A DNA stretch of 64,000 nucleotides from an uncultured bacterium. GTDB lineage: Bacteria > Bacillota_I > Bacilli_A > RFN20 > CAG-826. The stretch spans positions 19,833 to 83,832 of the forward strand of contig CASFSG010000068.1 in assembly GCA_949297305.1 (NCBI GenBank), in the 5' to 3' direction. Of this stretch, positions 37,328 through 56,806 are shown in pieces (the first letter of the stretch is position 1; every line of letters begins with the position of its first letter). Position numbers and translations under genes: made by a program. The notes below the pieces were generated by a model. That model searched no databases. It had not been told where the DNA came from and saw nothing but the letters and a program-made list of their open reading frames with translations.

Positions 37328-39550
37328 TTAATCTAAAGATAAAGACTTGATTAAATCAGGAATATAATGTAGTTCTAAAATATAGTTTTTATTGACGATA
37401 AATGAACGAAAAATAAAATTATCATTTTCGTCAAAATAACCAACTATAGACTGAGTAACATGATCTAACAAAACATATTCACTTAAAGTATTATTTTCTA
37501 AAGTAACAATGTGATTACGGATGGTGTTTTCGATAGAGAAAGAACCATGTATATCACTATTAGTGTTGACATCACTACTATTAATTTCTTGGCTTGCCCC
37601 ATAACGATTCTCCCAAATCGAAGGGATATTACTATGTAAAACCATTCCAGTTTCTGCGTCATGATCTAATGTGATATCACTACCATATAGCTTTACAAAG
37701 AAGTCCGTGTGGCGATAGACATAAAAACTAAAACTGCCATTTTCATAAATTAATAAAAAGTCGAAGATATGATAATAAAGTTCACTTTTGACCGAAAAGA
37801 AATTTTGGCCATTAATATTAGATAATGAAAAATAATCAGCGTATGGAACAAACTCCTGCGTAGTCGATGAGCCTTGTTCGATTGGGACTAAGATACTATC
37901 AGTAGGTTCATTAAATGAAATACCCGAAATGTAATATTCTCCAAAACGAAGTTGAAATGATTTATTCACATCGTCACTTAAATCAATGTTTCGCACTAAA
38001 TAGGCGTAAGGCATATTAACTAAATTGGTATGGGAAAAATTCGCACTGGAAGGATAAACGCTTTCAATATAATCATTATAATTGCCGCTTGTATCTATTC
38101 CTTCAATAATTTTAATATCGGTGACTTTCTCAAACCCGATAACTAAAGGCGCTCGATTATTTCCCATATGTCCATGACTAGAATGCAAGCCATCACCTGA
38201 ATCACCGTAGGCTTTATTATACTTAATAATGTTTTTAGCACTTATAGAATCAAAATTATTAAAAGATAACTTATTATAAAATTCATCTAAATCGATATTT
38301 CTTTCGCGTACACTACAATTTTGACCATTATAACCAACCGCGATGTAAAAATTATATAACCCTTGGCCATATAGCTTTACAATATCTTCGCTAGGTATTT
38401 CAAATACATTATTATTCCATTCGTTTCCGCTATAATCATCTTTTTTCATCCAGTGGATGCTAATTTTTTTATTACTATCAAGTTGAACATTATACGAAAC
38501 TGCTAAGCTAATATTAGATATTACATGATTTTCATCAAACCAACCACCAGTTGTATAAGTAATATTTTCATGCGTTTCACCTGTAAAAACAAAGCGTTTG
38601 ATGTCTCTATCATCGTTAACTTTTATATTTATACGTGTACTGTCATTATTAGCATAAAAATCATAAGTTCCTTCTCCAACAAAATAAGGATATAAACGAA
38701 TAACGCCATCATCATCCGCATAGTTAGCGGGATTTTCTAAAATATCAAAAATACATTGATTATCACTATTTCTAAACATTGATTGAATGAGGCTATATCC
38801 ATCTTCTTGATCAACTGGCATCTCGCCATTAAGCAACTTATAGGTCCAACCAGCAAAATAATAAACATAATAGTTGCCAGGATCATTCATCGAACATAAT
38901 GGATCGACGATATATTGGTTATATAAATAGGATGATAACTGTTCAACACCTTCAAACTTAATTGGTAAAAAGCGGCCATCGTCAAGATTTTTATTAGGCC
39001 AATAACCGAAACGTTCTTGCCGATACATGTTTCGAGGATATCGACCTTCGCCGTAATTGTTATACTGGCTGTTAATTTTTTCTTCATCTACTACCCCATA
39101 ATCTCGTCCATTAATTTCCCATGATTTACCATAAATTGTATCAGGGTCATTTCTATCATTATAAGAGTTAACATAGTAATTAGGAGCAGTGCTTCTACTA
39201 CCGATAGCAAGCGATCTATCATAATAATCATTATTAGTATTACCGACTCGCGTTAAGCCACCACCATTATTATCCGCTAAAAGGTAGCCGTCATATTCTT
39301 CGGGCTTTTCACCGAATATGCTGGTGTCCATATATAGTAAAGAAGGAAAAAAATAAATATCGTAAGTCGGCATGTCAACTTTTGTTGAACTAGCAAAAGT
39401 ATAATTTTCAGCAATATCATCGATGCGCACATCAGTGTCGATAGTTGTCTCATCTTTCGTCGTTTCAAAATAAAACAAAGAATACGCGCTTAGAGGTAGC
39501 ATCATAAAGATTGGAACAATCAATAAATACTTCAATAATCTTTTCTTCAT
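37328..39550 (-). CDS. large secreted Tyr/Asn/Asp-rich protein with a SipW-class-like signal; fourth gene of the SipW operon
   Basis: 740 aa. N-terminus MKKRLLKYLLIVPIFMMLPLSAYSLFYFETT. Its ATG directly follows the TAG of the upstream gene. No known domain recognised. Confidence 0.6.
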   Translation of the reverse strand: MKKRLLKYLLIVPIFMMLPLSAYSLFYFETTKDETTIDTDVRIDDIAENYTFASSTKVDMPTYDIYFFPSLLYMDTSIFGEKPEEYDGYLLADNNGGGLTRVGNTNNDYYDRSLAIGSRSTAPNYYVNSYNDRNDPDTIYGKSWEINGRDYGVVDEEKINSQYNNYGEGRYPRNMYRQERFGYWPNKNLDDGRFLPIKFEGVEQLSSYLYNQYIVDPLCSMNDPGNYYVYYFAGWTYKLLNGEMPVDQEDGYSLIQSMFRNSDNQCIFDILENPANYADDDGVIRLYPYFVGEGTYDFYANNDSTRINIKVNDDRDIKRFVFTGETHENITYTTGGWFDENHVISNISLAVSYNVQLDSNKKISIHWMKKDDYSGNEWNNNVFEIPSEDIVKLYGQGLYNFYIAVGYNGQNCSVRERNIDLDEFYNKLSFNNFDSISAKNIIKYNKAYGDSGDGLHSSHGHMGNNRAPLVIGFEKVTDIKIIEGIDTSGNYNDYIESVYPSSANFSHTNLVNMPYAYLVRNIDLSDDVNKSFQLRFGEYYISGISFNEPTDSILVPIEQGSSTTQEFVPYADYFSLSNINGQNFFSVKSELYYHIFDFLLIYENGSFSFYVYRHTDFFVKLYGSDITLDHDAETGMVLHSNIPSIWENRYGASQEINSSDVNTNSDIHGSFSIENTIRNHIVTLENNTLSEYVLLDHVTQSIVGYFDENDNFIFRSFIVNKNYILELHYIPDLIKSLSLD

Positions 39551-40207
39551 CTAAATGACCTCAACATAAGCTTCAATAGTCACAAAATGATTTGAAGTAT
39601 TTAAAGAAGCGACCAAAGCTTTATAACTATCTATATCGTGGGGCTTAACTTCCATAGAAGCGTATTGAAAATAATCGAGAAGATTGATTGTTAATGTCAT
39701 TGTATTAGGATCGTATTCTTCGCCAAAACTAGTAAACGATATCGCCTCATTAGGGTCATTTTCATCAACGAGGGAATTATATAAACTAGTCGTAGTGATG
39801 ATTGGTGAACCATCAATTTCAAAACCATTAATAATAAATCTTATTTTTAAATTATATTGGTAAGTGGCAAACTCTTCAGAAGGAAGAAATTGGATGCTGA
39901 ATTGATTTAATAAGGATAAACCAAAATAACCATCCATATCGATGATATTTTCATCATATATTTTTTGATAGAAATTCAAGCCATCGCTTAACGAAGAGGG
40001 GTTATTTCCTTCTTCAAAGATAATAAAATTGGGAGCATCGATAAGAAAATCACCAAAATTACCAAGGCCTTTCAAATCGACATTTACATTAAAAGAAGCT
40101 TCTATGTTATCTGAGGCACCATCGATAAAAAACCAGCTGCTTAAACCAGCGCCTACAAGAGTAATTGTTCCGCCTACCCCAATTAATAATGACGATAATT
40201 TGAACAT
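39551..40207 (-). CDS. TasA/camelysin-sized secreted protein with a SipW-cognate-type signal peptide (minor subunit candidate)
   Basis: 218 aa. N-terminus MFKLSSLLIGVGGTITLVGAGLSSWFFIDGASD. The start shares one base with the sipW stop (TAATG). Confidence 0.6.
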   Translation of the reverse strand: MFKLSSLLIGVGGTITLVGAGLSSWFFIDGASDNIEASFNVNVDLKGLGNFGDFLIDAPNFIIFEEGNNPSSLSDGLNFYQKIYDENIIDMDGYFGLSLLNQFSIQFLPSEEFATYQYNLKIRFIINGFEIDGSPIITTTSLYNSLVDENDPNEAISFTSFGEEYDPNTMTLTINLLDYFQYASMEVKPHDIDSYKALVASLNTSNHFVTIEAYVEVI

Positions 40208-41151
40208 TAATTTATTTGCTCCTTGTCAAGTTTTGTAGCTAAATATTTTAGACGTTTTGAATAATCGCGGTCGATCAATTCTTCCTGCACTTCTAAATTG
40301 ACAAGAAACACCAAGGCAAGTGTCATCGCAATGATGCCAATATTAGATTGTAAATAAGTGATCATCGCACCCCAAAAGAGGCTTTGATAACCATCATAAA
40401 TTCCGATGACATTATCAAACGAGACACCTTTTTCAAAAGAATATGAGCCATTATTCGCATCACCTTTAAAAGTTAAAAGGATTTCGCCATCACTACCTTC
40501 GTTTTTCTCAATCAAACGATGAACATAAATTAAATCATTAGCCTTAAAAGCTACAACATCATAAATATTTAACTCATCAACACTAGTAACGCGCTTAACA
40601 TTAATTAAGGCATATTGTTCAATTTGATTATCTAAATTATTTTCTTGAATGTAAGTATTTTCTTTATGAACAACCGACATCGAAGGTGTTTTGATAGTCA
40701 AATAGGTCGTATCATTAATAAAGAGCATATCGCCATTCACGCGATAAGTAATGGAAGTAATCATCAAAGCGATAATAAAAGCAGCAAAGACACCATAAAG
40801 GGATAAAAATACAATCTTTGATATTTTGGATATTTTCTCCTTTTTAGCGATTAGTTCAAGGTAAGAAGCAGGTTTCTCGCTTTGAATAGTCTCCTTACTT
40901 TCAACTTTAATAGCAGAATTTTTATTCGTTAAATTATTCCACCAAACGCTAAGTTTGATAGGATTATCGACTTTAGAATGTTTTTTGCCAGTTAAATCAT
41001 CGATGAGCTTTTGGTCTTCGTGACCATTTTTAATATGTTCTCTTTTATATTTTGCATAGACAAAATAAAGCAAAGAAAAAGTCACAGTCATCGCAATGAT
41101 GACAGTGATGGAAACAAAGAAAGCAATTCTAATTAAATTCTCATTACTCAT
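40207..41151 (-). CDS. sipW: ER/archaeal-type (S26B) signal peptidase I, SipW-like, with an N-terminal extension
   Basis: Blocks TPSMS (Ser), YDVVAF, VHRLIE (His), TFKGDANN, and a C-terminal TM helix. An extra ~130-aa N-terminal region has a TM helix plus a charged linker. ATG at 41151; the track ORF starts with TTG at 41163. Confidence 0.75.
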   Translation of the reverse strand: MSNENLIRIAFFVSITVIIAMTVTFSLLYFVYAKYKREHIKNGHEDQKLIDDLTGKKHSKVDNPIKLSVWWNNLTNKNSAIKVESKETIQSEKPASYLELIAKKEKISKISKIVFLSLYGVFAAFIIALMITSITYRVNGDMLFINDTTYLTIKTPSMSVVHKENTYIQENNLDNQIEQYALINVKRVTSVDELNIYDVVAFKANDLIYVHRLIEKNEGSDGEILLTFKGDANNGSYSFEKGVSFDNVIGIYDGYQSLFWGAMITYLQSNIGIIAMTLALVFLVNLEVQEELIDRDYSKRLKYLATKLDKEQIN

Positions 41152-41207
41152 CGCACGAAACAATAATTAATTATTAATAATAAATAGAGAGCTTACTTGA
41201 ACACTAA

Positions 41208-41888
41208 TTAGTTATTAGTAGCAAAAGTAGCCGCAAAAGTAATAGTAATGTCACCAACAGTAGCTAAAGCTGTGGACATGGAATTATAAGCTTCCGTATT
41301 AGTAGGCTTTTTACCAGTGACATATTGGAATAATTCGTTAACACCATCAGTTGTATTCATATCAACATTTAAATCAACAACATATTCGTTGCCCGAAGGG
41401 CTTAGAGGGAAACTACTAGTACGAACGAATGTTTTATCACCAGTAGTAGTATCAGCGCCTTTAGTCCAAGTAGCACTATTTTTAACAGTCACATAATTTG
41501 CTAAAGCACTAGGAATGGTAATAGTTGTTGTGATGGTAGGAAGCGTACCAGCTGAATTTAATTCATCATAATCCGATTCAGAAATGGTATAACTAGCTGC
41601 TAAATCACTAACAACAGCGTCATCACTACTAGTATTAACAACCGAGATACCTTTAGTAACATCATCTTTATTAGCAAAGCCACCTTGATCGAGAACTAGC
41701 TTTAATGTTACACCACTATCATTGACGGTGATTTTACCAGTGCCATCAGCTAATTCAGTTAATTCGACGTCCATATTAACAGTGCTATCAACATCGTCAA
41801 CGCCAAAATACCAAGCCGAGAAACCTGCACCAACAACAGCTACTAAGCCAAGAGTTGGGGCTAATAGAGCGGTAAGTTTTCTTAACAT
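41208..41888 (-). CDS. TasA/camelysin-sized secreted protein with a SipW-cognate-type signal peptide (major subunit candidate)
   Basis: 226 aa. N-terminus MLRKLTALLAPTLGLVAVVGAGFSAWYFGVDD. T/S/A/G/V-rich and visibly more GC-rich than its neighbours. Strong SD AAGGAGG 7 nt before the ATG. Confidence 0.65.
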   Translation of the reverse strand: MLRKLTALLAPTLGLVAVVGAGFSAWYFGVDDVDSTVNMDVELTELADGTGKITVNDSGVTLKLVLDQGGFANKDDVTKGISVVNTSSDDAVVSDLAASYTISESDYDELNSAGTLPTITTTITIPSALANYVTVKNSATWTKGADTTTGDKTFVRTSSFPLSPSGNEYVVDLNVDMNTTDGVNELFQYVTGKKPTNTEAYNSMSTALATVGDITITFAATFATNN

Positions 41889-41920
41889 TGTTTTTCCTCC
41901 TTCTTATGTTAAGTATTTAA

Positions 41921-41948
41921 ATAATATAAGAGCCCCCCCCTCTGTCAA
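41921..41948 (-). promoter_or_regulatory. sigma-70-type promoter of the SipW operon with a G8 tract in the -35/-10 spacer
   Basis: The minus strand reads TTGACA GAGGGGGGGGCTCT TATATTAT. -35 is at 41943..41948, G8 at 41933..41940, and the -10 candidates are TATATT and TATTAT (41921..41926). Confidence 0.6.
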
Positions 41949-42344
41949 TATTACGCGTATTTTTTTATTTTTGATTATTTATATAAGTTATATCTTCGAT
42001 GTTATCTACTTAATAGATAAAATGGCTAAAACAAAGCAAAATCAAAAAATTGATTTTTTGTCATTTCATTCGATATTATCGAAATTTTTTTGCTTTTGTA
42101 ATACTTTACCATCTTATAATTACTGCTACTATTAAATCTAGTCATATTAGCGTTATAAGCTACAATAAAAATTTTAAAGATTTTAGAAAAATAAATGCAA
42201 ATTTAATAAATTTCTATCTATCCTCTACTTAATAGTTCTTCATATCATTAAAAACTGCTTGATTTTCTATTTCCAAATGATGAGTTTTAAGTATATTTAT
42301 TATTAACTTTTATAATCTTGTGGTAATATTGTGGTGTTTCAAAA

Positions 42345-43171: not shown

Positions 43172-44059
43172 ATGGAAGTTATCGTCCCAAAATACAAATT
43201 TCAATTTTTAAATGAATTCGCTTTAAAAATCATCGCCATAATCACGATGACAATTGATCATCTAGGCGTAATGTTGTGTTCTTTTAATAGCCAAGATTCC
43301 ACCCAATATTTAATTGGTTATATCTTCCGTGTCATCGGGCGAATTGCCTTACCACTATTTATCTATATGCTCGTGGAAGGAATGATTAAATCAACTCATC
43401 GCGGCAAATATTTATTGCGATTAGCCATCATGGCTATCGCCATCGATATAGCGATGATTTTCATTTATTATTTTATCAATCACGACAATAGCTTAATCCC
43501 TGCTTTCAATGATTTATTGATCAATGGAACAATCTTATATTTTTTATTGCATCAAAAGAAAAGCCTAAGATTTTTAGCAATATTTCCTCTATTAATTTCT
43601 GCTTTATCTTTTGGGGTCGATGTTTATGAAACATTAAACCCTAATATCATCATCGAATGGTTTCCGTTTTATTTAAGAGGTGATTATTCGCTTTTTGCAA
43701 CTTTCCTCACTTTAGGAATCTATTTAGGACATATGCTAGCTAAAAGAAAAACGCAAGAATTTTTAGGAAATGTTCCTTTTGATAATTCCTATCGAAATGG
43801 TTATTATCAAGTTTATGTCAACATTATAAGCATTGTCGTTTTATTAGTAATTAACATCATCGTTTATTTTTTATCTTATTTAAAGATTGATCCATACTAT
43901 TCAAATATTCAAACTTGGTCAATCTTCGCTGGCATTTTCTTTTTCTTTTATAATGGCTATCGTGGTTATAACACAAAATGGTTTAAATATTCCTCCTATT
44001 TGTATTATCCAATGCATATTATTATCATTTATTTAATTTTTTATTTAATATATATGTAG
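43172..44059 (+). CDS. TraX-family membrane protein
   Basis: N-terminal LKIIAIITMTIDHLG block and a polytopic 295 aa. Confidence 0.7.
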   Translation: MEVIVPKYKFQFLNEFALKIIAIITMTIDHLGVMLCSFNSQDSTQYLIGYIFRVIGRIALPLFIYMLVEGMIKSTHRGKYLLRLAIMAIAIDIAMIFIYYFINHDNSLIPAFNDLLINGTILYFLLHQKKSLRFLAIFPLLISALSFGVDVYETLNPNIIIEWFPFYLRGDYSLFATFLTLGIYLGHMLAKRKTQEFLGNVPFDNSYRNGYYQVYVNIISIVVLLVINIIVYFLSYLKIDPYYSNIQTWSIFAGIFFFFYNGYRGYNTKWFKYSSYLYYPMHIIIIYLIFYLIYM

Positions 44060-44429: not shown

Positions 44430-44503
44430 GCAGGCGTAGTTTAGTGGTAAAACATTAGCCTTCCAAGCTGAATTTGCGAGTTCGATTCTCGTCGCCTGCT
44501 CCA
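44430..44503 (+). tRNA. tRNA-Gly (anticodon UCC), CCA encoded
   Basis: Hand-folded cloverleaf. Acceptor GCAGGCG/CGCCTGC; D arm GTTT-AGTGGTA-AAAC; anticodon arm TTAGC-CTTCCAA-GCTGA; T arm GCGAG-TTCGATT-CTCGT; discriminator T plus CCA. Confidence 0.9.
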
Positions 44504-44510
44504 GAGCGTT

Positions 44511-44538
44511 AAAAACACCGATAAATTCGGTGTTTTTT
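44511..44538 (+). terminator. rho-independent terminator after tRNA-Gly
   Basis: AAAAACACCG-ATAAATT-CGGTGTTTTT stem-loop running into a T-run. Confidence 0.8.
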
Positions 44539-44546
44539 GTTTTCGT

Positions 44547-44577
44547 GAGACACTTATGAGACACTTTTGAGACATTT
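44547..44577 (+). repeat. three direct repeats GAGACA(C/T)TT phased at 11 bp
   Basis: Copies at 44547, 44558 and 44569, lying between the tRNA terminator and the terminator of the phage-side operon. Confidence 0.7.
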
Positions 44578-44650
44578 TTAAAAATTTTGCTAAAATAACT
44601 ATGACCAATATTGTTATAGCAATATTTGGCAACCGACAATTTTTGTTTGC

Positions 44651-44686
44651 AAAAAGAAAACGATATTGTTGTTTTTCGCAATACCG
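44651..44686 (-). terminator. rho-independent terminator of the minus-strand ATPase/vWA operon
   Basis: On the minus strand: CGGTATTG-loop-CAATATCG (one mismatch) followed by TTTTCTTTTT, 20 nt after the stop at 44707. Confidence 0.55.
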
Positions 44687-44706
44687 TTTGTAATTATTCA
44701 TTCGAT

Positions 44707-44970
44707 TTAATCGTTGTTTTTTGCAAAATTATTTGCTTTAATAATTAAGTCTTTAATATAATTTTTTGCGGACTTTTGAGCTTTTAAGATGTCGATAATT
44801 TTTTCTTCGCATTTATCGGCTGGATTTAATTTAATATTTATTTGGTATAATTTAGAGTAGTATCTTTTTTGAGCCGCTTTTCCTTTCGAAGTTTTAAAAT
44901 ATTCATTATTCCTTTTTCTACGAACTTTCAATTTTTCTTCATTAGATAAGATTATTTTCTGCTTAACCAC
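44707..44970 (-). CDS. small basic protein, unknown function
   Basis: 87 aa. GTG start preceded by AAGGAGG at 7 nt. Overlaps the upstream gene by 19 nt. Lys/Arg-rich N-terminus. Confidence 0.5.
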   Translation of the reverse strand: MVKQKIILSNEEKLKVRRKRNNEYFKTSKGKAAQKRYYSKLYQINIKLNPADKCEEKIIDILKAQKSAKNYIKDLIIKANNFAKNND

Positions 44971-45497
44971 TTTTGAGCCTCCTTATCAGATAATCTTCTT
45001 TTCGTTGTTTTTTCGATCTCGCATAAATCAAATCTTTTTCTATCACCATGTGCGTTAATGATGAGCCAATTTCCTTTCTTTATAGCATTCGCGAAATATT
45101 CTACTTTAATATCCATTTTTTTATGTCTTGCGTAAGGGTGAAAAATCTTAATTTCATACGAGCCATGATAGTAAGTATTTTTTTCAGCTTCTAATTTAGA
45201 TTTTTTATTTTCAAAAATCGTTATATTGTCTAAATCGATATCTTCGATTATCTCATAAAAATCGGTTTCATTACAATACTTGCTGGTATGATGCCAACTA
45301 GAATATTTTAAACAATTATTTCTTAAAGTTTCTAAATTAAATTTCTTGAGTTTTTCGGCAATTTCTTCAGGATACGCTTCAAGAATTGCTTGTTTAGACC
45401 AATTGCTCACCGGCTTTTCGCCTTTATCGTAAGCTTCAACCGCACGATTACTCATAGAATATCCGGAATATCCAGAATTTTTATTTTTTGTAAACAT
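44952..45497 (-). CDS. hypothetical protein
   Basis: 181 aa with SD AGAGGAAA. N-terminal MSNRAVEAYDKGEKPVSNWSK and SWHHTSKYCNETDFY blocks that I recall seeing in Firmicutes mobile elements, but cannot name. Confidence 0.5.
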   Translation of the reverse strand: MFTKNKNSGYSGYSMSNRAVEAYDKGEKPVSNWSKQAILEAYPEEIAEKLKKFNLETLRNNCLKYSSWHHTSKYCNETDFYEIIEDIDLDNITIFENKKSKLEAEKNTYYHGSYEIKIFHPYARHKKMDIKVEYFANAIKKGNWLIINAHGDRKRFDLCEIEKTTKRRLSDKEAQKWLSRK

Positions 45498-45524
45498 TTT
45501 TATTTTCCTCTTTGTGAGAGTTCT

Positions 45525-47021
45525 CTAAAAGAGAACCCTCATGCTTTCTAAAATATTTTCTTTTAAACGCAAAGCGTAATTGACATTTTCGCAAATAATG
45601 CGTTTGACTTGTTTGAGGCTTTTTGTTAAAGGCTCAACATTGCTTTTTTCAACAATCATTATCGTTTGATTGTTGTTAAAATATGGCTTTAAAATTGATA
45701 CAGGAGTTTTATGGAGGAGGTTTGTTCGTGCGTAAACTTCTTGACCGTCAAATAATACGATATCAATAATTTTAGCATTCTTGTCTTGATGAGTTTTTTT
45801 GTAAACCGTTTTAAGATTTTCAAGAGTTTCTTCAAATTGGCCGATGGCATAGTTTCCGAAAACAGAATTAGAACGCTTGTCAGATGCGATACTCAAGCGA
45901 CCATTCTTCATTCTAATTACATTAAATGTAAAAGATGGTATTTCTTTTTCAATATGCTTGAGCGCTTCGCTAATACAATTAAAGGCGAAATCGTTATGCT
46001 CAAACGACCCAGAATTGTCGAGCCAGATATTTAGTATTTTTCCGTTAAGCATAGATTTTTGAGCTTGAGCATTCGAACTATTTCTTTCGAAAACGCGCCC
46101 CTCGTTGTTGAAATCTTTTAATAATTTCTTGACCGACAATTTACCAGAATAGCCATAGGCTATATTTTTGGAAGCCGGTTTTTGCCCGCCAATTTTTGAA
46201 AATATGATTGAGCGAGCTTTTAATTCGAAATCGAAATTCGCAGGAATAACGCCCGTCTCTTGATAGTATTTATTATCGATAATATGCTTAATAATTTCTT
46301 CTTGCTCTTCGCGGTTGTTCTCTGGTTGAGCTTCTGGTTGAGCTTCTGGTTGAGACGCGGCAATATATTGCGTCCATAATCCATATAAGCCATAAATAAC
46401 GCGAGCATGTAATTGAGCATTCTTTCGTTTCTGATACGCTCTAATAAACAAGTCTAATAGCTTGAGCCCTGCATCTAATATTATTATATTGTCTAAATCG
46501 TGAGTTCTTACGATGTAGAAAAAGAAATTTTCGAAACTATTCAATGCTCTTTTTTTGTCAAACGGAGAAATATTTCGCGAGAATTTCGTAAACGAAAACC
46601 CCATGAAATAACCGTTGAGAATGGTTTCAATGAACTCGTCTTCGAGAACATTTAATAAATATTTAATATTTATACTCGATGATGTGCAAGAGCGTAAAGT
46701 GCTGGCGACCTGATTGATATACTTTGGAGTTAGTGTGTTTATATCGGTGAGTATTGCGTGGCTGACCTCGTGATATACGAGCATTCTTATTGTTTCTTCG
46801 AATTCGAATTGGGTGTTTAAGATTTTGTAAAAATCATAAACATTTTTAACAGCGATTGTAATTTGAGAATTTCCGTTTTTATCAAACGAGATATAACTCG
46901 TTTCGGCGATATTGTCTACATTGACTTTAAGAGTTTTAACTCTTAAATAATAGGCGATTGGCAAGGTCGGAGCGATTGCCGCGACCTTGTCCTTAACTTC
47001 TTCAAAAGTAAACTTTTGCAT
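45525..47021 (-). CDS. putative Zn-metallopeptidase (HExxH) fused to a vWA domain, DUF2201-like
   Basis: YHEVSHAIL (HExxH) and LEDEF in the N-terminal half, a QPEAQPEAQPE linker, and a C-terminal vWA with MIDAS LDNSGS. SD AAAGGAGG. Confidence 0.7.
   Translation of the reverse strand: MQKFTFEEVKDKVAAIAPTLPIAYYLRVKTLKVNVDNIAETSYISFDKNGNSQITIAVKNVYDFYKILNTQFEFEETIRMLVYHEVSHAILTDINTLTPKYINQVASTLRSCTSSSINIKYLLNVLEDEFIETILNGYFMGFSFTKFSRNISPFDKKRALNSFENFFFYIVRTHDLDNIIILDAGLKLLDLFIRAYQKRKNAQLHARVIYGLYGLWTQYIAASQPEAQPEAQPENNREEQEEIIKHIIDNKYYQETGVIPANFDFELKARSIIFSKIGGQKPASKNIAYGYSGKLSVKKLLKDFNNEGRVFERNSSNAQAQKSMLNGKILNIWLDNSGSFEHNDFAFNCISEALKHIEKEIPSFTFNVIRMKNGRLSIASDKRSNSVFGNYAIGQFEETLENLKTVYKKTHQDKNAKIIDIVLFDGQEVYARTNLLHKTPVSILKPYFNNNQTIMIVEKSNVEPLTKSLKQVKRIICENVNYALRLKENILESMRVLF
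46319..46354 (-). repeat. 12-nt in-frame tandem repeat (about 3 copies) encoding the (QPEA)n linker
   Basis: Plus strand: tctctggttgag cttctggttgag cttctggttgag. Confidence 0.8.
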
Positions 47022-47048
47022 TCTAATTTTCCTCCTTTAAATAACTTG

Positions 47049-48257
47049 TTATTTAACCTCGACATTATTGAAGCCGACCCATTCAGGCGTGAAATCTTTA
47101 TTAAAGTTAATAACTTTAAACGCTCTTGAAATTAACGCATCAGGGAGCGTAAATCTGCCGTCATTAGTTTTTTCATTCATGGTAAATATTACCATGAAGC
47201 CTTCTTTAATTTCGATATCGCCGAAACCATGATTGTCGTTGAGCGTCTTGCTATTATCTAGCAAGGTTTGGAGCACTCTTAAACAATCGGGGTTTAAATT
47301 ATTGACTTCGTCAATAATAACGCATCGCCCTTCTTTGGCAGCAATGCCGATTGCAGTTAGTTCGTATCTTTTAGATACGGGGTTGTAAGCACTAAATAAA
47401 TCTTCAGCCATTAAGCCCATGCTTGCTTGAAATGTTAATACATTTCTAGCATCGGCTAGTTTATCGTGCATCACCGCGATACGATGAGCCTCGGTAGTCT
47501 TACCTAATCCAGGTTTACCAAAAAAGATTTGCAATCTTTTATTAACGGCTTTTGTAAAGTTTAAATTTCGCCATTCAATAATTCTATTATTGAGGTTTTC
47601 CCACTCGATTGATTTAGATTTATTATCTAAATCAGCCACAATGTTCTCGTCAACGCCCGATAAAATCATGCATGATTTTATATAATTGATGCAATCAGGA
47701 GCGTCTTGCGATAGCAAGACATTTATTTGACGATTGTCTAACTCGTAGTAAAAATCTTTCATAAAAGATTTTAAATCTTGAGTTAGTTTCGAAAATTGTT
47801 TACAATATGCATTGTAATCGGTTTTAGTTAATTTAACTAAACCCGTGTTGGACGCTTGCTTTGCGGTTGAGGCTGGCGTCTTTTTTTCTTCAGTATCAAT
47901 AGATACTGGTTTCTTGACTTTTGGCGATTTTTGATTACTACTATTAAAAATAGTAGTATCAACGCTTTCGTCTTTGGGACTATTAGAAGAGTTTTTGGCT
48001 AAATATTTTGAAAAATATTTATTGCCGTTAGTTCGAGCCCCTTGAATAAAAGATGCGGCTCCAGATAATGATTTAAAAGAAATATCTTCTTTTAAAGTAA
48101 TCTTATCGTCTTCGCAATATTTATCTCTTAGAGATAACATATCTTTGCCGCTGGACTTAATTCTATCTACGATAGAACCTTTCTTGATGGTTATATTATA
48201 ACCATTAGCTGTTTGCTCAATTGTTAATTGAGACTTCTTAATTGTTAATTCTTTCAT
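47049..48257 (-). CDS. AAA+ ATPase (AAA_5/MoxR/CobS-like) with an N-terminal DUF4357-like domain
   Basis: Walker A GKPGLGKT and Walker B VIIDEVNN. N-terminal ISFKSLSGAASFIQGARTNGNKYF. Start set at MKELTIKK (GGAGG-N7-ATG); the track ORF extends to 48320 across the predicted promoter. Confidence 0.7.
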   Translation of the reverse strand: MKELTIKKSQLTIEQTANGYNITIKKGSIVDRIKSSGKDMLSLRDKYCEDDKITLKEDISFKSLSGAASFIQGARTNGNKYFSKYLAKNSSNSPKDESVDTTIFNSSNQKSPKVKKPVSIDTEEKKTPASTAKQASNTGLVKLTKTDYNAYCKQFSKLTQDLKSFMKDFYYELDNRQINVLLSQDAPDCINYIKSCMILSGVDENIVADLDNKSKSIEWENLNNRIIEWRNLNFTKAVNKRLQIFFGKPGLGKTTEAHRIAVMHDKLADARNVLTFQASMGLMAEDLFSAYNPVSKRYELTAIGIAAKEGRCVIIDEVNNLNPDCLRVLQTLLDNSKTLNDNHGFGDIEIKEGFMVIFTMNEKTNDGRFTLPDALISRAFKVINFNKDFTPEWVGFNNVEVK

Positions 48258-48303
48258 ACATTTTCCTCCATAAATCAACAACGCGATTTCGTTTCGCAAT
48301 CTT

Positions 48304-48333
48304 ATAATATAATAAAGCAATTAATCTTGTCAA
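48304..48333 (-). promoter_or_regulatory. sigma-70-type promoter for the ATPase/vWA operon
   Basis: The minus strand reads TTGACA-N16-TATATT, about 45 nt upstream of the ATG at 48257. Confidence 0.45.
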
Positions 48334-49130
48334 GAAAATTTTTATTTTTGTAAAGATTTCTTGCTCGTTTATAAATATTTTATAAAAAAATTTAAACTTT
48401 TTTTGTCAAATTTATGTATTTTTTCGAGTTAACTATGGTTAACAATAGATGGAGTAAACTATCATTATTGAAGATATCTTCTTTAATTTTTAAAAAGCGA
48501 TTTCATCATTTTTCAAAGAACGACATAAGATATATTTAATAATATCTTAAATTTTTTCTCATAAAATTCTCACGCATTTAGAATATATCGATTTTATCGA
48601 TATTTTTAAGTCATCGGAGCAGTTCATAGGGTTTGAATTAGAAAAAATACTCGATTTTTTCTCGCCTTATTGGTGGAAACACCCCTCCCCTAGTCCCCTC
48701 TTTTGATATGGGGTATATTCATATTTAATCTTTCATTCTCCCCACAAACCTAAATTTTTGACTTCATTTCGCCAAATTACTCAAGTATTTATACTACAAA
48801 TTAAGTCCTTATAATGCTTTATTTAAAATATTTTTTATGAACAATTTACATATTTTTAAGTGCTCACACGCATACACGCATGCGGTCTAACTAATTCCAG
48901 GTATTTTATATAAAAATTAGATTATTCATAGATAGAAATATCTAGCATATATATAACGAGTGAGTATATATAAGATTAATTCTTCAATTAAGAAAGAGTT
49001 AATAAAATAAAATAATTAGGGAAAACATTAAACCTTTCTTATTAAGAAATTCAAACAACTTTCTTGAACCACAACTTTTTTTGTGCTACTATTTAGTCGA
49101 AATTGATAATTATAAATATTTTTAGTGTTC

Positions 49131-49562
49131 ATGAAAAAGAAAAATACTGCAAAAGAAGTAATCGACCAACTAACAAATTCCACCACTTTAAGCGACGAAA
49201 ATAAAAAACTCTGCACGAAAATATTTTTGGAACTTATGCCAGATGAAACTAGAAAAGTATTATCTGGAACTAACTATTACGAAAATGGTCGAGAACTTAA
49301 AATCGAAGATGCTAAAAAAGCTTTAGCGAAAATGTTGTGTGGTTCATTCACATATAAAGATGGTAAACAATTATCGCCAAAGCAATTGATTGATATGTCT
49401 GTCATTGGCTATACTTTAGCAAATCCAACCCCTCAGAATGTTAAAGCTCTTTATGAAACCGCAGGGTTGATAACGAAAAATGTCGATATCACCACCAACG
49501 GAAATTCTATTGATGCTTTTTTGCATTCTTTAGATTTATCTAACAACACGGAAAATAAATAG
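49131..49562 (+). CDS. small phage protein, possible small terminase subunit (by position only)
   Basis: 143 aa, immediately upstream of the large terminase. No motif recognised and no obvious SD. Confidence 0.3.
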   Translation: MKKKNTAKEVIDQLTNSTTLSDENKKLCTKIFLELMPDETRKVLSGTNYYENGRELKIEDAKKALAKMLCGSFTYKDGKQLSPKQLIDMSVIGYTLANPTPQNVKALYETAGLITKNVDITTNGNSIDAFLHSLDLSNNTENK

Positions 49563-49564
49563 AA

Positions 49565-51361
49565 ATGGCGAATAAAACAAGAAACTTCTCAATTTTTGTC
49601 CCCGATAGTAAAGGACTAAAACACGAAATACGCGTTTTAGATTTTATTGAGAACTTCTTATATATCCGACCAAAACCAATCAATTTATTAGAAGAAATTA
49701 GTGAAGGGGAAAATGAAAACTCTTCTTTAATCAAGTTTAAATTAAATCCACAACAAATGCGTTTCTATCTTCAAATTGAAGACGACTGGAAAAATTATCG
49801 CCCGATACGATACGCAATTTTAAAAGCTCGCCAAATTGGTTTTTCTACTTTAATAGCAGCAATTATTTTTACTGTGACGATTTATTCTCCGTATCGCGAA
49901 AGTCTAATCATCAGTGATAAAGACGACCACACTTCGAGAATATTTCAAATGTATCAACGCTTTTACGACCATTTGCCTGAACAAATTAAACCAAAACTCG
50001 ACTCAAACAAAAGAGGGACAATTATTTCGACTTCGTATGAGGCGACAATCAGCGTAGAAACCGTTAGTGACGATTTAGCTAGAGGTGCTACTTTAAAGTG
50101 CGCGCACGCCAGCGAATACGCAATGTGGCGAAAACAACAAGAGGCGATGGCATCTTTAAACTCAGCTGTTGCTTTATCGCCTGACACAATGTTATTTATT
50201 GAAACCACCGCTAAAGGAATGAATTTTTTTCGCGATTTATTTATCAACGCCTACGAAAACAATAATTCCAATCTAAAGGCTTGGTTTGAACCTTGGTATA
50301 AAAACAAAGACTATCGCAATCCGTATTACGGTCAAGAACTTTATCATAGCGGAACTTATGGAGATGAAATAAAACTTTTAGACGAATATCAAGACAAAGG
50401 AATGACTAAAGAAAGTCTAATGTGGCGAAGAGCACAAATTGATGCGATGGGTTTAGATTTGTTCCATCAAGAAAATCCTACTTATCCTGAAGAAGCGTTT
50501 TTATCAACTGGAGTAAGCGTATTTAATTCAATGATGGTAAATAAACGCATTCAAGAATTAAGAAATTCGCATCAAAAAATAATTAAAGGCAATTTTGAAT
50601 ATGACGCGACTTGGAGTGAAAATGGTCAAAGAATAAAGATTGATAATATCCGTTTTGCTGAAAATCCTAATGGTGATGTTTCAATTTTTGAAAAACCAAT
50701 TGAGGGCTATCCTTATGTAATTGGTGCAGACCCTGCTGGATTGAATGGCAAAGATTATTTTGTAGCACAAGTAATCCGCCACGATGGCAATAATCGCAAA
50801 CAAGTCGCGGTCTTTAGAAAACAAAAATTAGACCCTGATGAATTCGGAATGCTGCTTTATTGTTTGGGTTCATACTACAACAACGCTTTAATCGGTGTTG
50901 AAATCAATATGGGGCAAAACCCTAATAAAAGACTGGCACAAGCAGGATATCGAAAAATATACGTTCGCCAAAACATACAAGCATACGACGAACCCACATT
51001 AAATCAATACGGTATTTCTACTCAAGGCTCTAATAAATGGGATATGGTCAACACACTTAAAGAAAGATTTAGAGAGCACGAAGAAGAATTTAACGATTTA
51101 ACAACTTTAAATGAAATGCTAACTTTTGTTGTTTTAGATATTGGCTCAAGAGGAAATTATATCGTAGGCGCGGCAACTCAAAGCGACCACGACGACACAG
51201 TTATGGCGCTTGCAATTGCTCATACTATCGCTTTAACTAACCAACAAACAACAAGTGTTAATGTAGCAATACAAAAGCAAAAAGATATTCCCTTTGCGCT
51301 TAAAAATAATAAACAATCGAAAGGACACGGTTTATGGAAATCAGCAACTATATCATATTGA
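49565..51361 (+). CDS. terL: phage terminase large subunit
   Basis: ATPase block ILKARQIGFST (Walker A-like) and LIISDKDD. C-terminal RNase H-like nuclease with VIGADPAG and SDHDDTVMALAIA. Confidence 0.85.
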   Translation: MANKTRNFSIFVPDSKGLKHEIRVLDFIENFLYIRPKPINLLEEISEGENENSSLIKFKLNPQQMRFYLQIEDDWKNYRPIRYAILKARQIGFSTLIAAIIFTVTIYSPYRESLIISDKDDHTSRIFQMYQRFYDHLPEQIKPKLDSNKRGTIISTSYEATISVETVSDDLARGATLKCAHASEYAMWRKQQEAMASLNSAVALSPDTMLFIETTAKGMNFFRDLFINAYENNNSNLKAWFEPWYKNKDYRNPYYGQELYHSGTYGDEIKLLDEYQDKGMTKESLMWRRAQIDAMGLDLFHQENPTYPEEAFLSTGVSVFNSMMVNKRIQELRNSHQKIIKGNFEYDATWSENGQRIKIDNIRFAENPNGDVSIFEKPIEGYPYVIGADPAGLNGKDYFVAQVIRHDGNNRKQVAVFRKQKLDPDEFGMLLYCLGSYYNNALIGVEINMGQNPNKRLAQAGYRKIYVRQNIQAYDEPTLNQYGISTQGSNKWDMVNTLKERFREHEEEFNDLTTLNEMLTFVVLDIGSRGNYIVGAATQSDHDDTVMALAIAHTIALTNQQTTSVNVAIQKQKDIPFALKNNKQSKGHGLWKSATISY

Positions 51362-51663
51362 CAAGAAAAGAGCATAAAAAATTCCATGATTTTAAAAAAT
51401 TTTTAGAAATCATTGGATTAAACGAAAATGATTTATTAAGCCGTTTAAATAATTTAGAAAAAGAAAACAAAGAGCTGAAACAAAAAGTTCTCGTTTTGGA
51501 AAAAGCATTAAATTCACAAGAGGAATATTACAAAAATTACATCAACGAAAGACTTGACACTCTCGTGCTTAATATCCGCAAGAATTTACAAGAAACAACC
51601 AAAAACACTTTGTCTGTAATGCAAGCATCTTTTAAAGGAAACAAGATAAATGAAAACATCTAA
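51334..51663 (+). CDS. small coiled-coil phage protein
   Basis: 109 aa. Overlaps both the terL 3' end and the portal start. Heptad-like LNNLEKENKELKQKVLVLEKAL. Confidence 0.45.
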   Translation: MEISNYIILTRKEHKKFHDFKKFLEIIGLNENDLLSRLNNLEKENKELKQKVLVLEKALNSQEEYYKNYINERLDTLVLNIRKNLQETTKNTLSVMQASFKGNKINENI

Positions 51664-53821
51664 TCAAAGAAAAGATAATTTTAATAAAGAAATAAATACA
51701 TTACCGTATGAGTGTTTTAGACTTCATGAACAATATATGGAACAAAAAGGTTTTTCTTCTTGCATTCCTGAATGGTGGGCAATGTATGAAGGCAAACAAT
51801 TACCAGACGATTATAGCGATGATTTACCTAGAGCAATGGAAAATATCTGTTCCTGGGTTGTCGATAGTAAACACGCGACAATTTTAGGGACTACAACAAC
51901 ATTAAACTTTACTTGCTTTGATAAAACTATATCGACTGATGCTTTAAAGAAATTTGATGAATATCAACAAAAAGCAATTAAAATGGAAGCATTTAAAGAT
52001 AAGGTTGTTTTAGATAGTTTAGTTGGAGCATCTGGCTTCTTATATCATTATTGGAATGAAAACGCTAACTTTATTCGTGGTAAATCAAAAGGCTCCTTAT
52101 GTTTAGACACCATTCAATTTGAGGACTTCTTTTGTTCTAACCCTCGTTTAGACAATTTGCAAAAGCAAAAATATGTTGGTTTTCGTCGACGCGAAGAAGT
52201 AAAGGCTGTTCGCGAACTCATTGATAAAAATATTGAGAATTATGAAGAAATTATATCAAATATAGTCCCAGACGATTATTTAGAAAAACGCTCAAAATAT
52301 GATAACGATATCACAGCTCTTAACAGCGGTTTAGTCACAACTTATACAAGATTTTTTAGAATAGATGGCGAAGTATATTGGGAAAGGTCGACTAAAAGTG
52401 TCAATTTAGTAAACCCTACTGCTTTAAATCCTGATATAACTGAAAAAGAACTAAAAAATAAATTAAAAAAGAAAAGAAATGATGATGGCTATGAATATAG
52501 CCCAGACGATATGGAAATTTATGAAATTGACCCTGAAATACCATCGTTTCAAGATAATGAATTAGAAAAATCAAATAGTAAAGAATACGCAGACGAAAAA
52601 GAAAAAATGTCGCTTTACCCAATTTGCATTTTATCGCTAAAGCCGCGAAGAAATTGTCTATATGGTCGTAGTGAAATCGAAGATGTTGAAGACAATCAAC
52701 GCATCATCAACTTTAATATTGCAATGATTGCCAAAGAAGTTCAAGACACTGCTTGGGCAACCATTATTATGAAAGACGGCGCCGCTAATGGACAAACTTG
52801 GACTGGTTCCCCTGGTGGCGTATTTATCGATTATACACCAGGAAATTCTTTTGGTATTAAGCGCCTTGAAGGGAACCAACTTAACAGCGGCGTGATGCAA
52901 TATGTTATCAACTTAATTGATATTACTAAAATGATTACTGGCACAAACGAGCTTGTATCTAGCGAGAGTGGATTAAAAGATGTCACGGCTTACGCTTTGC
53001 AAATTTTAGAAGAACAACGAAATAAAAAAATTGAAATACTCCAAAATAGATATTGGCGTTTCCTTGTTGAGTGCGCAGAAATTCGTTTACAATTTTATAA
53101 ACACTACTATCCCGAAAGTTATTATTTAATCAATTTAACAGATGCAGAATACCAGGAAGAAAAACAAATTTATGACGACTTCTTAAAGCACCCTGAACAA
53201 ATAATAAATTTTGATAATCGCAATATAACAAAGGGCGAAGCGGCACAAATTAAAGGCGAGCCACTTCGTTATCAAAGAAAGAGTGTAAACCCCAAGGAGG
53301 AATGGAAAGGTCATATTTTTGATATTGTTTGCGAAAGCGGCAAAGGCACAAAATATAGCGAAATTATTGATGCCGACTTAATCAATACACTTTTCTTAAA
53401 TGGCGGCTATGACAAAATGACCACTGACGCTTTTGAAATGTGGCTTACACTTAATCCACTATTGTCTGAAAGTAGAAAAGTAGATATTAAAATTTTATTA
53501 GAAAAACAAAAAGCAAGCGAAAATAGCCAACTCAAACAAATGAATGCTCAACTTGAGCAAATGCTACAAACAGCCTTGTCGAGAGTTAAACAACTTGAGG
53601 CAATTTATAAACAACAAGGCCTATATGCAAAAGGCTTAGAAGAAAACTTTGCTCGTTCAATGAATGCCGCTAAAGAGCAAGTTGATATAAGAGAAAGAGA
53701 ACTTAATGAAATTCGAAAATCAATGAATACTCAACCAAACACCAACAATTCTTCACAAAATAGTAATAGGCAAACGATAACAAAAATGCCAAGCGTCGAA
53801 GAAATGATAAGAAATGGTTAA
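51650..53821 (+). CDS. phage portal protein (by position and size)
   Basis: 723 aa, directly after terL and before scaffold and capsid. C-terminal coiled coil and an Asn/Ser/Gln-rich tail. Confidence 0.6.
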   Translation: MKTSNQRKDNFNKEINTLPYECFRLHEQYMEQKGFSSCIPEWWAMYEGKQLPDDYSDDLPRAMENICSWVVDSKHATILGTTTTLNFTCFDKTISTDALKKFDEYQQKAIKMEAFKDKVVLDSLVGASGFLYHYWNENANFIRGKSKGSLCLDTIQFEDFFCSNPRLDNLQKQKYVGFRRREEVKAVRELIDKNIENYEEIISNIVPDDYLEKRSKYDNDITALNSGLVTTYTRFFRIDGEVYWERSTKSVNLVNPTALNPDITEKELKNKLKKKRNDDGYEYSPDDMEIYEIDPEIPSFQDNELEKSNSKEYADEKEKMSLYPICILSLKPRRNCLYGRSEIEDVEDNQRIINFNIAMIAKEVQDTAWATIIMKDGAANGQTWTGSPGGVFIDYTPGNSFGIKRLEGNQLNSGVMQYVINLIDITKMITGTNELVSSESGLKDVTAYALQILEEQRNKKIEILQNRYWRFLVECAEIRLQFYKHYYPESYYLINLTDAEYQEEKQIYDDFLKHPEQIINFDNRNITKGEAAQIKGEPLRYQRKSVNPKEEWKGHIFDIVCESGKGTKYSEIIDADLINTLFLNGGYDKMTTDAFEMWLTLNPLLSESRKVDIKILLEKQKASENSQLKQMNAQLEQMLQTALSRVKQLEAIYKQQGLYAKGLEENFARSMNAAKEQVDIRERELNEIRKSMNTQPNTNNSSQNSNRQTITKMPSVEEMIRNG

Positions 53822-53907
53822 AGCATACTTAGTATGTTTTGATAAATCGCAGGTGCGCAGCGTAAATGCACATTCACTACCCTTGTAGTGTTCAAGAAAG
53901 GGGGAAT

Positions 53908-54750
53908 ATGGAAAACCAAACCATAAATGCTGAGAAAGTGAAACAAGAAAACACTAATCAGGCGACAACACAAACGGAAACACCATCTTCCGAGGCTGAA
54001 ACTAATACTCAAAACGCTGAAGGCAAGGACGCTGAAACAACACAAAAAAATTCCGCTAACGAAGGCGATGACAAAAAAGTTGTTGATGAAGAGCAGAAGC
54101 AAAGTAAAGAATTAGACGCTAAATACGCAAAATTACGACACGAAAGAGATGTTGCAAAAGCCAAAGAGGCGGGCGACAAAGAAGGTTATAAGCGTGCAAG
54201 AATTAAAAGCGTAGGTGGTAAAAATCCTTACTCTGATAATTCACCTATAGAGACAGATGAAGATTATGAGTTTTACGAGCTTCAAGACGAAGTTAAAAAT
54301 CGTGGTCTTGACCCAAAAAACCCTTTAGATTGTGAGAAAGTTCGCCGCGAAATTGCTAAAAAGGCAAGAGAAGATTATGAAAAATCTTTAAGCGAAGAGC
54401 AAAAAGCACAAAACAAAGCCGACAAAGAAGTAAGAGATTATCTTGCTAAAGGTCATACCACCAAAGAACTTAATTACTATTTGAACAATCCACAATTTCA
54501 AGAGTTTAGCAACGACTTGCTCGGTGTTCTCCCCTTAGAAAATGTTATTAACAAATTTAATAAGATTTATGGAGAAATGCACAAAGAGATTGAAGAACAA
54601 ATTAGTAAAGAAGCTCGAAACAAATCTAATCCAGGTTCTTCAAGTTCGATAGAAAGTAATCCGATCAAAAAATCTATTCAACAAATGAGCGACGAAGAAT
54701 TCAAAACCTATATTGAAGAAATTAAGAGTGGGAAGCGAAAAATCAATTAA
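53908..54750 (+). CDS. phage scaffolding protein
   Basis: 280 aa, highly charged Lys/Glu-rich helical protein directly upstream of the capsid gene. Start set at MENQ with SD AAAGGGGG. Confidence 0.6.
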   Translation: MENQTINAEKVKQENTNQATTQTETPSSEAETNTQNAEGKDAETTQKNSANEGDDKKVVDEEQKQSKELDAKYAKLRHERDVAKAKEAGDKEGYKRARIKSVGGKNPYSDNSPIETDEDYEFYELQDEVKNRGLDPKNPLDCEKVRREIAKKAREDYEKSLSEEQKAQNKADKEVRDYLAKGHTTKELNYYLNNPQFQEFSNDLLGVLPLENVINKFNKIYGEMHKEIEEQISKEARNKSNPGSSSSIESNPIKKSIQQMSDEEFKTYIEEIKSGKRKIN

Positions 54751-54766
54751 CAGGAGGAATTTATAA

Positions 54767-55789: not shown

Positions 55790-55816
55790 TAGATAAGATT
55801 TTTAATACGAAGTTTT

Positions 55817-55839
55817 GAGTGTTCTTCTTAAAAACACTC
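55817..55839 (+). terminator. hairpin after the capsid gene (possible attenuating terminator)
   Basis: GAGTGTT-CTTCTTAAA-AACACTC; the T-run is only weak. Confidence 0.3.
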
Positions 55840-55858
55840 TTAAAAGGAGAATAAGACA

Positions 55859-56107
55859 ATGGCAGAAAAAGGACAAAATACTAGAAACAAGAAGGAAAGA
55901 ATTCCTTACTTTGTTCCAGTAGACCCATTAAATGAATGGGACAAAGACAAAAAAGTTATCGTTAATGGCAAACTGTATGCAATTAAACGCGGCAGGCAAG
56001 TTTTAATACCTCAAGAAGTTTATGAAGTATTAAAGCAAGAGGAAGAAAACGAAAATAAAATTCGTGAAACTTACGAAGAAAGAAAAAACGAATTTGCGAA
56101 AATGTAA
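55859..56107 (+). CDS. small phage structural-module protein
   Basis: 82 aa with SD AAAGGAG; charged C-terminus. Confidence 0.45.
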   Translation: MAEKGQNTRNKKERIPYFVPVDPLNEWDKDKKVIVNGKLYAIKRGRQVLIPQEVYEVLKQEEENENKIRETYEERKNEFAKM

Positions 56108-56123
56108 ATAAAGGAGATTGTAT

Positions 56124-56795: not shown

Positions 56796-56806
56796 CAGGT
56801 ATAGCA

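Follow-up and report, generated by a model that had tools for sequence, protein, structure and literature searches.

The promoter region of one operon in an uncultured low-GC gut bacterium carries an uninterrupted run of eight G's, which raises the question of whether the run is a fixed part of the promoter, a site at which transcription begins, an accident, or a switch whose length sets the level of expression. Within the window (the whole stretch of 64,000 nucleotides that was analyzed), the run falls between a -35 hexamer and two overlapping -10 candidates, and four co-oriented, tightly packed genes lie downstream of it (Table 1). The reading that we favor, with a probability of about 60%, is that this is a contingency promoter, driven by slippage of the G tract and controlling the operon.

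A G8 tract lies in the spacer of a candidate operon promoter

Read on the minus strand, the promoter motif as a whole is TTGACA-GA-G8-CTCT-TATATTAT, at a distance of about 18-20 nt from the Shine-Dalgarno sequence. An earlier note on this DNA had described a perfect TTGACA at 41943..41948, a G8 run (C8 on the plus strand) at 41933..41940, and the overlapping -10 candidates TATATT and TATTAT with spacers of 14 and 16 nt, respectively, and direct reading of the minus strand bears out all three. The Shine-Dalgarno sequence AAGGAGG that it had reported is likewise present, but one base away from where it had been placed (41896-41902 instead of 41897..41903). That the tract would be the longest G/C homopolymer in the window also holds, as a homopolymer census found the C8 to be the sole G/C run longer than 5 in the 64,000 bases; the next longest are four G5 and one C5. 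Under Markov models of order 1-3, 0.04-0.12 G/C runs of at least 8 are expected per 64-kb window; the G8 run is uncommon, yet possible by chance.

A consensus scan ranked TTGACA-16-TATTAT, which matches the consensus at 11 of 12 positions, as the top promoter-like site of a 7.1-kb stretch that includes the operon. In the window as a whole, three sigma-70-type matches of at least 11/12 were found versus 4.3 expected, which is no enrichment. The consensus match taken alone is at chance level, and calling this motif a promoter therefore needs more than consensus; it is the position of the tract and its conservation in relatives that raise the finding above chance. A search of the window with Rfam returned one tRNA only and no known leader or riboswitch at the promoter.

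Table 1. Coordinates of the promoter elements, the operon genes and the genes of the adjacent prophage-like block in the window
Feature	Position	Strand	Basis or remark
-35 hexamer TTGACA	41943..41948	minus	direct reading and consensus scoring
2-nt GA between -35 box and G8	41942-41941	minus	direct reading
Unbroken G8 tract (C8 on plus strand), proposed slippage site	41933..41940	minus	direct reading and homopolymer census
CTCT just 3' of G8	41932-41929	minus	direct reading
TATATTAT, overlapping -10 candidates offset by 2 nt	41921..41928	minus	direct reading
-10 candidate TATATT	41928-41923	minus	14-nt spacer from TTGACA
-10 candidate TATTAT	41926-41921	minus	16-nt spacer from TTGACA
Shine-Dalgarno AAGGAGG, 7 nt ahead of ATG	41896..41902	minus	direct reading
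Gene 1 ATG	starts 41888	minus	direct reading
Inverted repeat AAATCAATTTTTTGATTT, ~100 nt upstream of -35 box	42039..42056	minus	invariant alignment block
Anchor sequences either side of the G tract, AATATTGACAGA ... CTCTTATATTAT			equivalents in other lineages
Gene 1, 226-aa secreted protein	41208..41888	minus	hydrophobic N-terminus ending VGAGFSAWYF
Gene 2, 318 aa, divergent ER/SipW-type signal peptidase I homologue	40207..41163	minus	N-terminal membrane extension
Gene 3, 218-aa paralogue of gene 1	39551..40207	minus	similar N-terminus (VGAGLSSWFF)
Gene 4, 740 aa	37328..39550	minus	N-terminal hydrophobic segment (LSAYSLFYF)
Prophage-like block: ATPase	47049-48320
Prophage-like block: terminase large subunit	49565-51361
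Prophage-like block: portal	51650-53821
Prophage-like block: major head protein	54767-55789

The operon encodes secreted proteins and a divergent signal peptidase

In the orthologous operons, the order of the genes is a secreted protein, a SipW/Sec11-type signal peptidase, a paralogous secreted protein and a 740-aa protein. The peptidase, gene 2, matches the SipW model NF046067 with an E-value of 2.3e-9 and 37 bits, below the equivalog cut-off of 190, and a Pfam search for the S26 family gave no match above threshold. Three blocks are invariant among nine orthologues of gene 2, namely S161-M162, H215-R216 (including V-H-R) and G234-D235-x-N237, and a profile of the orthologues matches human SEC11C and SEC11A (E = 7e-4 to 1.4e-3) on the HR and GDxN boxes. 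These invariant residues and the SEC11 match identify gene 2 as a divergent signal peptidase of the ER/SipW type, and its sequence has the Ser-His catalytic pair of ER/archaeal-type signal peptidase I. Terminator-like hairpins inside gene 2 were disregarded because they lie within coding sequence.

Genes 1, 3 and 4 matched no family in Pfam or NCBIfam, even at an E-value of 10. Gene 3 is 20% identical to the gene 1 family in an alignment and occupies the same slot of the operon in L001, L002, L003, L006, L008, L009 and L023 (L numbers denote related loci), and gene 4 is the fourth gene in relatives too. The resemblance of VGAGFSAWYF to a SipW-cognate signal peptide is one seen by eye alone; TIGR04088, which we take to be the model of that peptide, was not among the NCBIfam matches of genes 1, 3 or 4 or of the isolated N-terminus. 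Processing of the secreted proteins by a dedicated signal peptidase is supported.

Gene 1 was also considered as a TasA-type fiber subunit, and this candidate found no support, with no TasA match by family, profile or solved fold. Searching PDB sequences with a profile of 26 gene 1 homologues returned no TasA. In its AlphaFold model (pLDDT 74), gene 1 has a beta-sandwich from about residue 50, with residues 1-47 disordered, and Foldseek with this model returned nothing from the PDB at E <= 1e-3. Of the earlier proposal of a secreted-fiber operon, the secretion of the proteins is supported, but the fiber identity is not, as neither sequence nor fold matches TasA. Gene 1 may instead represent an undescribed family of secreted proteins with about 25 detectable members, for which Pfam and NCBIfam hold no model.

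The genes of the operon differ in their rates of protein change. Between the window and the 96%-identical L002, where dS is about 0.07 in all genes, dN/dS is 0.80 for gene 1 and for the first 443 codons of gene 4 (38209-39550), 0.22-0.23 for genes 2 and 3, and 0.08-0.10 for the flanking Rce1-like and TraX genes. This pattern suggests diversifying or relaxed selection on exposed proteins in gene 1 and the N-terminal part of gene 4, and from their sequences the genes under this promoter look like exposed antigens.

The G tract recurs at the homologous promoter position in related lineages

Exact-protein look-ups and one metagenome scan yielded 30 loci of the orthologous operon from gut metagenomes, including human gut and bird caecum, and a protein search found 25 homologues of gene 1. 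The operon lineage is rare. Species-representative genomes were searched for the exact promoter pattern with a variable gap and for gene 1 peptides, and nothing was found; in viral contigs, the promoter pattern gave two chance matches, neither with a G run, and protein alignment gave none. A look-up of the window's thioredoxin as an exact protein returned no record.

The tract occurs at the homologous promoter position in eight lineages. It is G8 in L001, which has 99.9% nucleotide identity to the window, and G9 in L002, where TTGACA-GA-G9-CTCT-TATATTAT places TATTAT behind a 17-nt spacer. The sister species (L003-L005; 82% nucleotide identity, dS 0.75-0.93) reads TTGACG-CT-G8-CTCT-TATAATAT. 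At 44% protein identity, L006 has the same four genes in a different neighborhood and reads TTGACT-AC-G10-...TATTAT, with a 19-nt spacer; L023, at 40%, reads TTGAC-G9-TCGTTATA-TATAAT, with a 16-nt spacer; and L018, at 30%, reads TTGCAA-TTTTCGC-G10-T-TACAAT, with an 18-nt spacer. In L024 and L025 (32% protein identity), the run is G9 and the assignment of the promoter is ambiguous, as L024 has a better promoter, TTGACT-N18-CATAAT, upstream of its run. Across lineages the spacers come to 16, 17, 16, 19, 16 and 18 nt.

In a neighbor-joining tree of gene 1 proteins, the window, L002, L003, L005, L006 and L023 form one clade that extends down to 40% identity, and all members of this clade have an unbroken G8-G10 right behind TTGAC and ahead of a -10-like box. 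Outside the clade, L018 (G10) and L024 (G9) are isolated carriers, and the run is absent from eleven other lineages. TTGAC directly upstream of the run is kept in clades A, B and C and in L023. G/C runs of at least 7 number 11 in the 104 kb of related loci, and each of them is this promoter tract, with the G's always on the sense strand of the operon. In the alignment of the window with its relatives, AAGGAG is also conserved, and the TATAAT and TAATAT of the sister clade occupy the same two -10 positions as TATATT and TATTAT.

Some relatives without the run retain the surrounding promoter. The homologous promoter of L015 reads AATATTGACA-N18-TATATT. In L021 and L022, A7 and A5, respectively, stand in the place of the L018 G10, following the TTGAAA/TTGCAA box that these loci share. 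As these relatives keep the same promoter frame, the G run appears to be an add-on to an ordinary spacer, and for the same reason we take the motif to be the probable promoter of the operon.

Other simple repeats were observed upstream of the operon in lineages that lack the G run. In L009, L010 and L011 (36% protein identity), (TTA)n lies 165 nt upstream of the gene 1 orthologue in 5, 7 and 5 copies, with flanks that are otherwise identical, and is a second kind of variable simple repeat in this operon family. In the one assembly of L008, (TA)8 lies 95-110 nt upstream of the gene 1 orthologue and about 12 nt downstream of the promoter-like TTGACT-N17-TAATAT.

The tract is retained across deep divergence and differs in length among lineages

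Comparison of the window with L003 shows how the run has fared relative to its surroundings. The -35 to -10 core is identical at 28 of 32 positions, versus 92 of 147 (63%) in the DNA upstream, and the run is intact, while a dS of 0.75-0.93 means that synonymous sites are near saturation. In L006 and L023, alignment is limited to the run and short promoter motifs. That eight G's would persist by neutral evolution in a genome of 32% GC, where a pure run of 8-10 G's should erode fast, seems very unlikely; an unbroken run at near-saturated synonymous divergence and such a GC content argues that the run itself is maintained by selection.

The earlier note had proposed comparing tract length in related assemblies and had held that invariance would count against a switch. 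The tract is not invariant: G8, G9 and G10 all occur, and the tract is kept at 30-44% protein identity. Its prediction that one more G would give the optimal 17-nt spacer describes a state that exists, as the 96%-identical L002, a strain at the conspecific level, has G9.

At close range, the signal is weak, with a length difference in one of five same-lineage comparisons (G8 in the window and L001 versus G9 in L002). Lengths are equal within the pairs L006/L007 (both G10) and L024/L025 (both G9), and five of the six assemblies in the two closest clades (A and B) have G8 despite their deep divergence. Of the 14 gap openings that separate the window from L002 over 6.3 kb, the G8/G9 difference accounts for a single indel; L002 is a single-run Logan assembly, and by itself this difference is not compelling.

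Two observations bear on the length calls themselves. Positions 1-31 of L007 differ from L006 by changes to C only, beside the G10 run, in a pattern typical of low-quality read ends, and the contig of L026 begins one base after its G9 run. Since assemblies break or degrade at the tract, single length calls from low-coverage assemblies are to be read as plus or minus 1. These disturbed contig ends of L007 and L026 are also the only hints at frequent, reversible changes of length inside a population.

A slippage-driven contingency promoter is the probable explanation of the tract

In the reading that we favor, a housekeeping promoter of the sigma-70/sigma-A type would drive the four-gene operon across a spacer made up mostly of poly-G. 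Tracts of G8-G10 are intrinsically prone to slipped-strand mispairing during replication, and each G gained or lost would shift the spacer by 1 nt, giving 15 nt at G7, 16 nt at G8 (to TATTAT) and 17 nt at G9, with the overlapping TATATT reaching register only at G10-G11. Promoter strength would then move in heritable, reversible steps, such that a population would always hold cells with high, low and no expression of the peptidase and its fast-evolving secreted substrates. The rate of slippage is set by mismatch-repair status.

The paired -10 boxes, which are present in both close clades, would let different tract lengths engage different boxes. Depending on the box used, the G8 state could be one with a 16-nt spacer (active) or one with a 14-nt spacer (inactive). 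The sister clade has a perfect TATAAT at the 14-nt spacing, and the promoter of L015 suggests that TATATT is the ancestral -10 box. Overlapping boxes would fit a rheostat with multiple levels better than a plain on/off switch. Here we infer the identity of the active promoter, frequent slippage and an effect of tract length on transcription from the sequences compared.

Several features expected of a contingency promoter are found in these sequences. Slippage calls for an unbroken homopolymer of about 7-8 nt or more, and the tract has such a length, at G8-G10. The placement of the tract between -35 and -10 holds at the level of sequence for TTGACA-N16-TATTAT in the window, TTGACG-N16-TATAAT in L023, TTGCAA-N18-TACAAT in L018 and TTGACT-N19-TATTAT in L006, with L024 ambiguous. 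The length differs between strains, being G8 in the window and L001 versus G9 in L002.

The strongest competing explanation is that the run is a static promoter element, selected not for its mutability but as a rigid spacer (affecting promoter opening or the response to supercoiling) or as a G/C-run site for a regulator. Lengths of 8, 9 and 10 would then reflect slow evolutionary drift, with the remainder of the spacer compensating, and all cells of a population would express the operon alike. This explanation accounts for the G8 consensus shared by clades A and B at a dS of about 0.8, for identical lengths within three same-lineage sample pairs, for inferred spacers that all fall within the ordinary functional range of 16-19 nt, and for the constant orientation of the run on the sense strand. 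Conventional regulation is also suggested by further conserved elements in the vicinity, among them the inverted repeat at 42039-42056. However, the run lies 0, 2 or 7 nt from the -35 box depending on the lineage, and its flanking sequences have nothing in common, which argues against a site recognized by a sequence-specific protein. The homologous promoters of L015, L021 and L022 do without the run, and a strain with 96% identity already differs by one G. Moreover, runs of G8-G10 are mutationally unstable wherever this has been measured (PMC7864442), so that even a static element would yield spacer-length variants. On balance, we consider a static role less likely than the switch, though it is the main rival.

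The inverted repeat may be a regulator site, either for the operon or for the divergent Rce1-like gene; the AAATCAATTTTTTGATTT block is invariant between clades whose surrounding intergenic DNA is 63% identical. TTGACA as half of an operator palindrome was rejected, as the window has just the trivial AATATT and a palindrome was found in L024 alone. The L024 palindrome, TTGACTATATAGTCAA, spans 16 bp without a mismatch at about 1380-1395, some 25 nt upstream of G9, and overlaps a TTGACT -35-like box in an operator-like arrangement.

Alternatively, the G run could be initially transcribed sequence, with transcription starting at or in the run from a promoter just upstream and with control by reiterative G addition or GTP sensing, at the level of RNA and initiation. 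Reiterative transcription at GGGCTC is the mechanism of B. subtilis pyrG. Two arrangements would suit such a start: in L024, TTGACT-N18-CATAAT ends 4 nt before G9, which would put the start inside the run, and in the window the run, which CTCT follows, has a weak -10-like TAATAT 7 nt ahead of it. However, TAATAT has no -35 partner, and in the window, L003, L006, L023 and L018 no -35/-10 pair puts a start in the run, leaving L024 as the only locus that allows it. The element shared directly upstream of the run is the -35-like TTGAC/TTGCAA and not a -10 box, and what comes directly after the run varies among lineages (CTCT, TATT, TCGT, TTAC and TTCT). We regard this explanation as very improbable.

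Finally, sequencing or assembly error (for example, two-color poly-G) or a meaningless intergenic coincidence, to which the Markov expectation and the disturbed assemblies at the run (false C's garbling the end of L007, the break in L026) might point, is effectively refuted by the recurrence of the run in independent projects and assemblers (ENA, Logan, JGI), at one homologous promoter position in eight lineages and well within long contigs, where unique sequence flanks it at either end, and we give this explanation next to no weight.

Comparison with known promoter-spacer repeats

The mechanism proposed here is that of the classical promoter-spacer homopolymer switch, as in porA, tp0126 and vlp, and at the level of sequence its defining features are found at this locus. 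In N. meningitidis porA, a G tract in the promoter spacer gives graded "volume control" of expression according to its length (PMC7864442). The slippage-switch reading shares with porA a homopolymeric G tract between the -35 and -10 of a surface-protein promoter whose length sets the length of the spacer, and the opc poly-C is a related case. Unlike porA, which belongs to a Gram-negative pathogen with many such loci and for which switching and expression levels have been measured, the present locus comes from an uncultured low-GC gut bacterium and is known from sequence, and its unit is a four-gene operon that includes a signal peptidase.

In T. pallidum, tp0126 has poly-G between -35 and -10 with an optimum at 17-nt spacing, and the tprL poly-G ranges from 7 to 11 in vivo with one length dominant (PMC7864442). 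The placement of the tract and the 17-nt optimum of tp0126 are points of likeness, and the poly-G range of 7-11 in tp0126 and tpr (E, G, J and L) matches the lengths found here. In the treponemal tracts, strains agree in modal length even though minor lengths are also present in vivo (PMC7864442), which matches the mostly-G8 consensus of our loci. The treponemal case differs in that fragment-length analysis and GFP reporters have confirmed the tracts, that those of the tpr genes closely precede the transcription start instead of occupying the spacer, and that the targets are outer-membrane proteins, unrelated to the products of this operon.

The present tract also differs in kind from other spacer repeats, those of vlp and hif being poly-A and the TA dinucleotide, respectively, rather than poly-G. 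Spacer repeats switch surface lipoproteins and fimbriae on and off in M. hyorhinis vlp (poly-A) and H. influenzae hifA/hifB ((TA)n), and such switching extends to AT-rich, genome-reduced bacteria derived from Gram-positives. A single hif repeat acts on two divergent promoters at once; at our locus, the start of the divergent Rce1-like gene is some 400 nt away.

In gene content, the nearest comparison is the tapA-sipW-tasA operon of B. subtilis, which likewise combines an ER-type signal peptidase with secreted proteins that have matching N-terminal signal peptides. Expression of tapA-sipW-tasA is heterogeneous in a population owing to SinI/SinR/SlrR bistability. Here, the heterogeneity would arise from a DNA repeat tract and not from a regulatory network. 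Genes 1 and 3 match no TasA/camelysin family, PDB sequence or solved fold, in contrast to the subunits of the TasA fiber (for its biology, see PMC9674648), and the score of the peptidase falls well short of the SipW equivalog cut-off. The likeness to tapA-sipW-tasA is confined to the logic of the operon.

Implications for phase variation in gut bacteria

Repeat-driven phase variation is documented almost entirely in pathogens, and a 2025 review treats it as an open question whether this reflects a real restriction or database bias (PMC11868660). The locus described here is a candidate for repeat-driven phase variation in uncultured gut commensals, and a literature search found no paper linking SipW operons to phase variation. 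If the slippage-switch reading is true, the operon would be a case of bet-hedging on a surface or matrix structure by DNA slippage rather than by regulatory bistability, and the structure would be flagged as a target of host immunity or phage.

A broader reading, which we hold only tentatively and with odds somewhat against it, is that the poly-G spacer is a contingency promoter that spans lineages. It would travel with a single family of secreted-protein operons with a SipW peptidase in uncultured low-GC gut bacteria, a family that would have gained it repeatedly, and it would render a fast-evolving surface or matrix structure stochastic yet heritable in its expression. Its scope is one deep clade and at least two isolated lineages, with variable (TTA)n or (TA)n upstream of the operon in other relatives. 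Retention or re-acquisition of the tract across a whole operon family of uncultured gut bacteria adds to the interest of the locus. If true, the system would be a DNA-encoded counterpart of the regulatory bistability of Bacillus tapA-sipW-tasA, and would indicate that phase variation driven by repeats is common among non-pathogenic Bacillota of the gut.

Neighborhood of the operon

Some 2.5 kb from the poly-G promoter, a tRNA gene (44430-44500) is followed directly by a prophage-like block (44430-57634), which includes the genes listed in Table 1; in L002, the genes at the prophage junction are different. Sigma-70 matches of at least 11/12 occur at just one other place in the window, 48306-48333 on the minus strand, which reads TTGACA-N16-TATATT or N18-TATTAT with the same TATATTAT box and lies just upstream of the phage-region ORF at 47049-48320. 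The TraX-family gene encodes 270 aa in the 99.9%-identical L001 (829-1641) versus 295 aa in the window (43172-44059) and in L002, which could be a difference in start site or a frameshift between near-identical strains.
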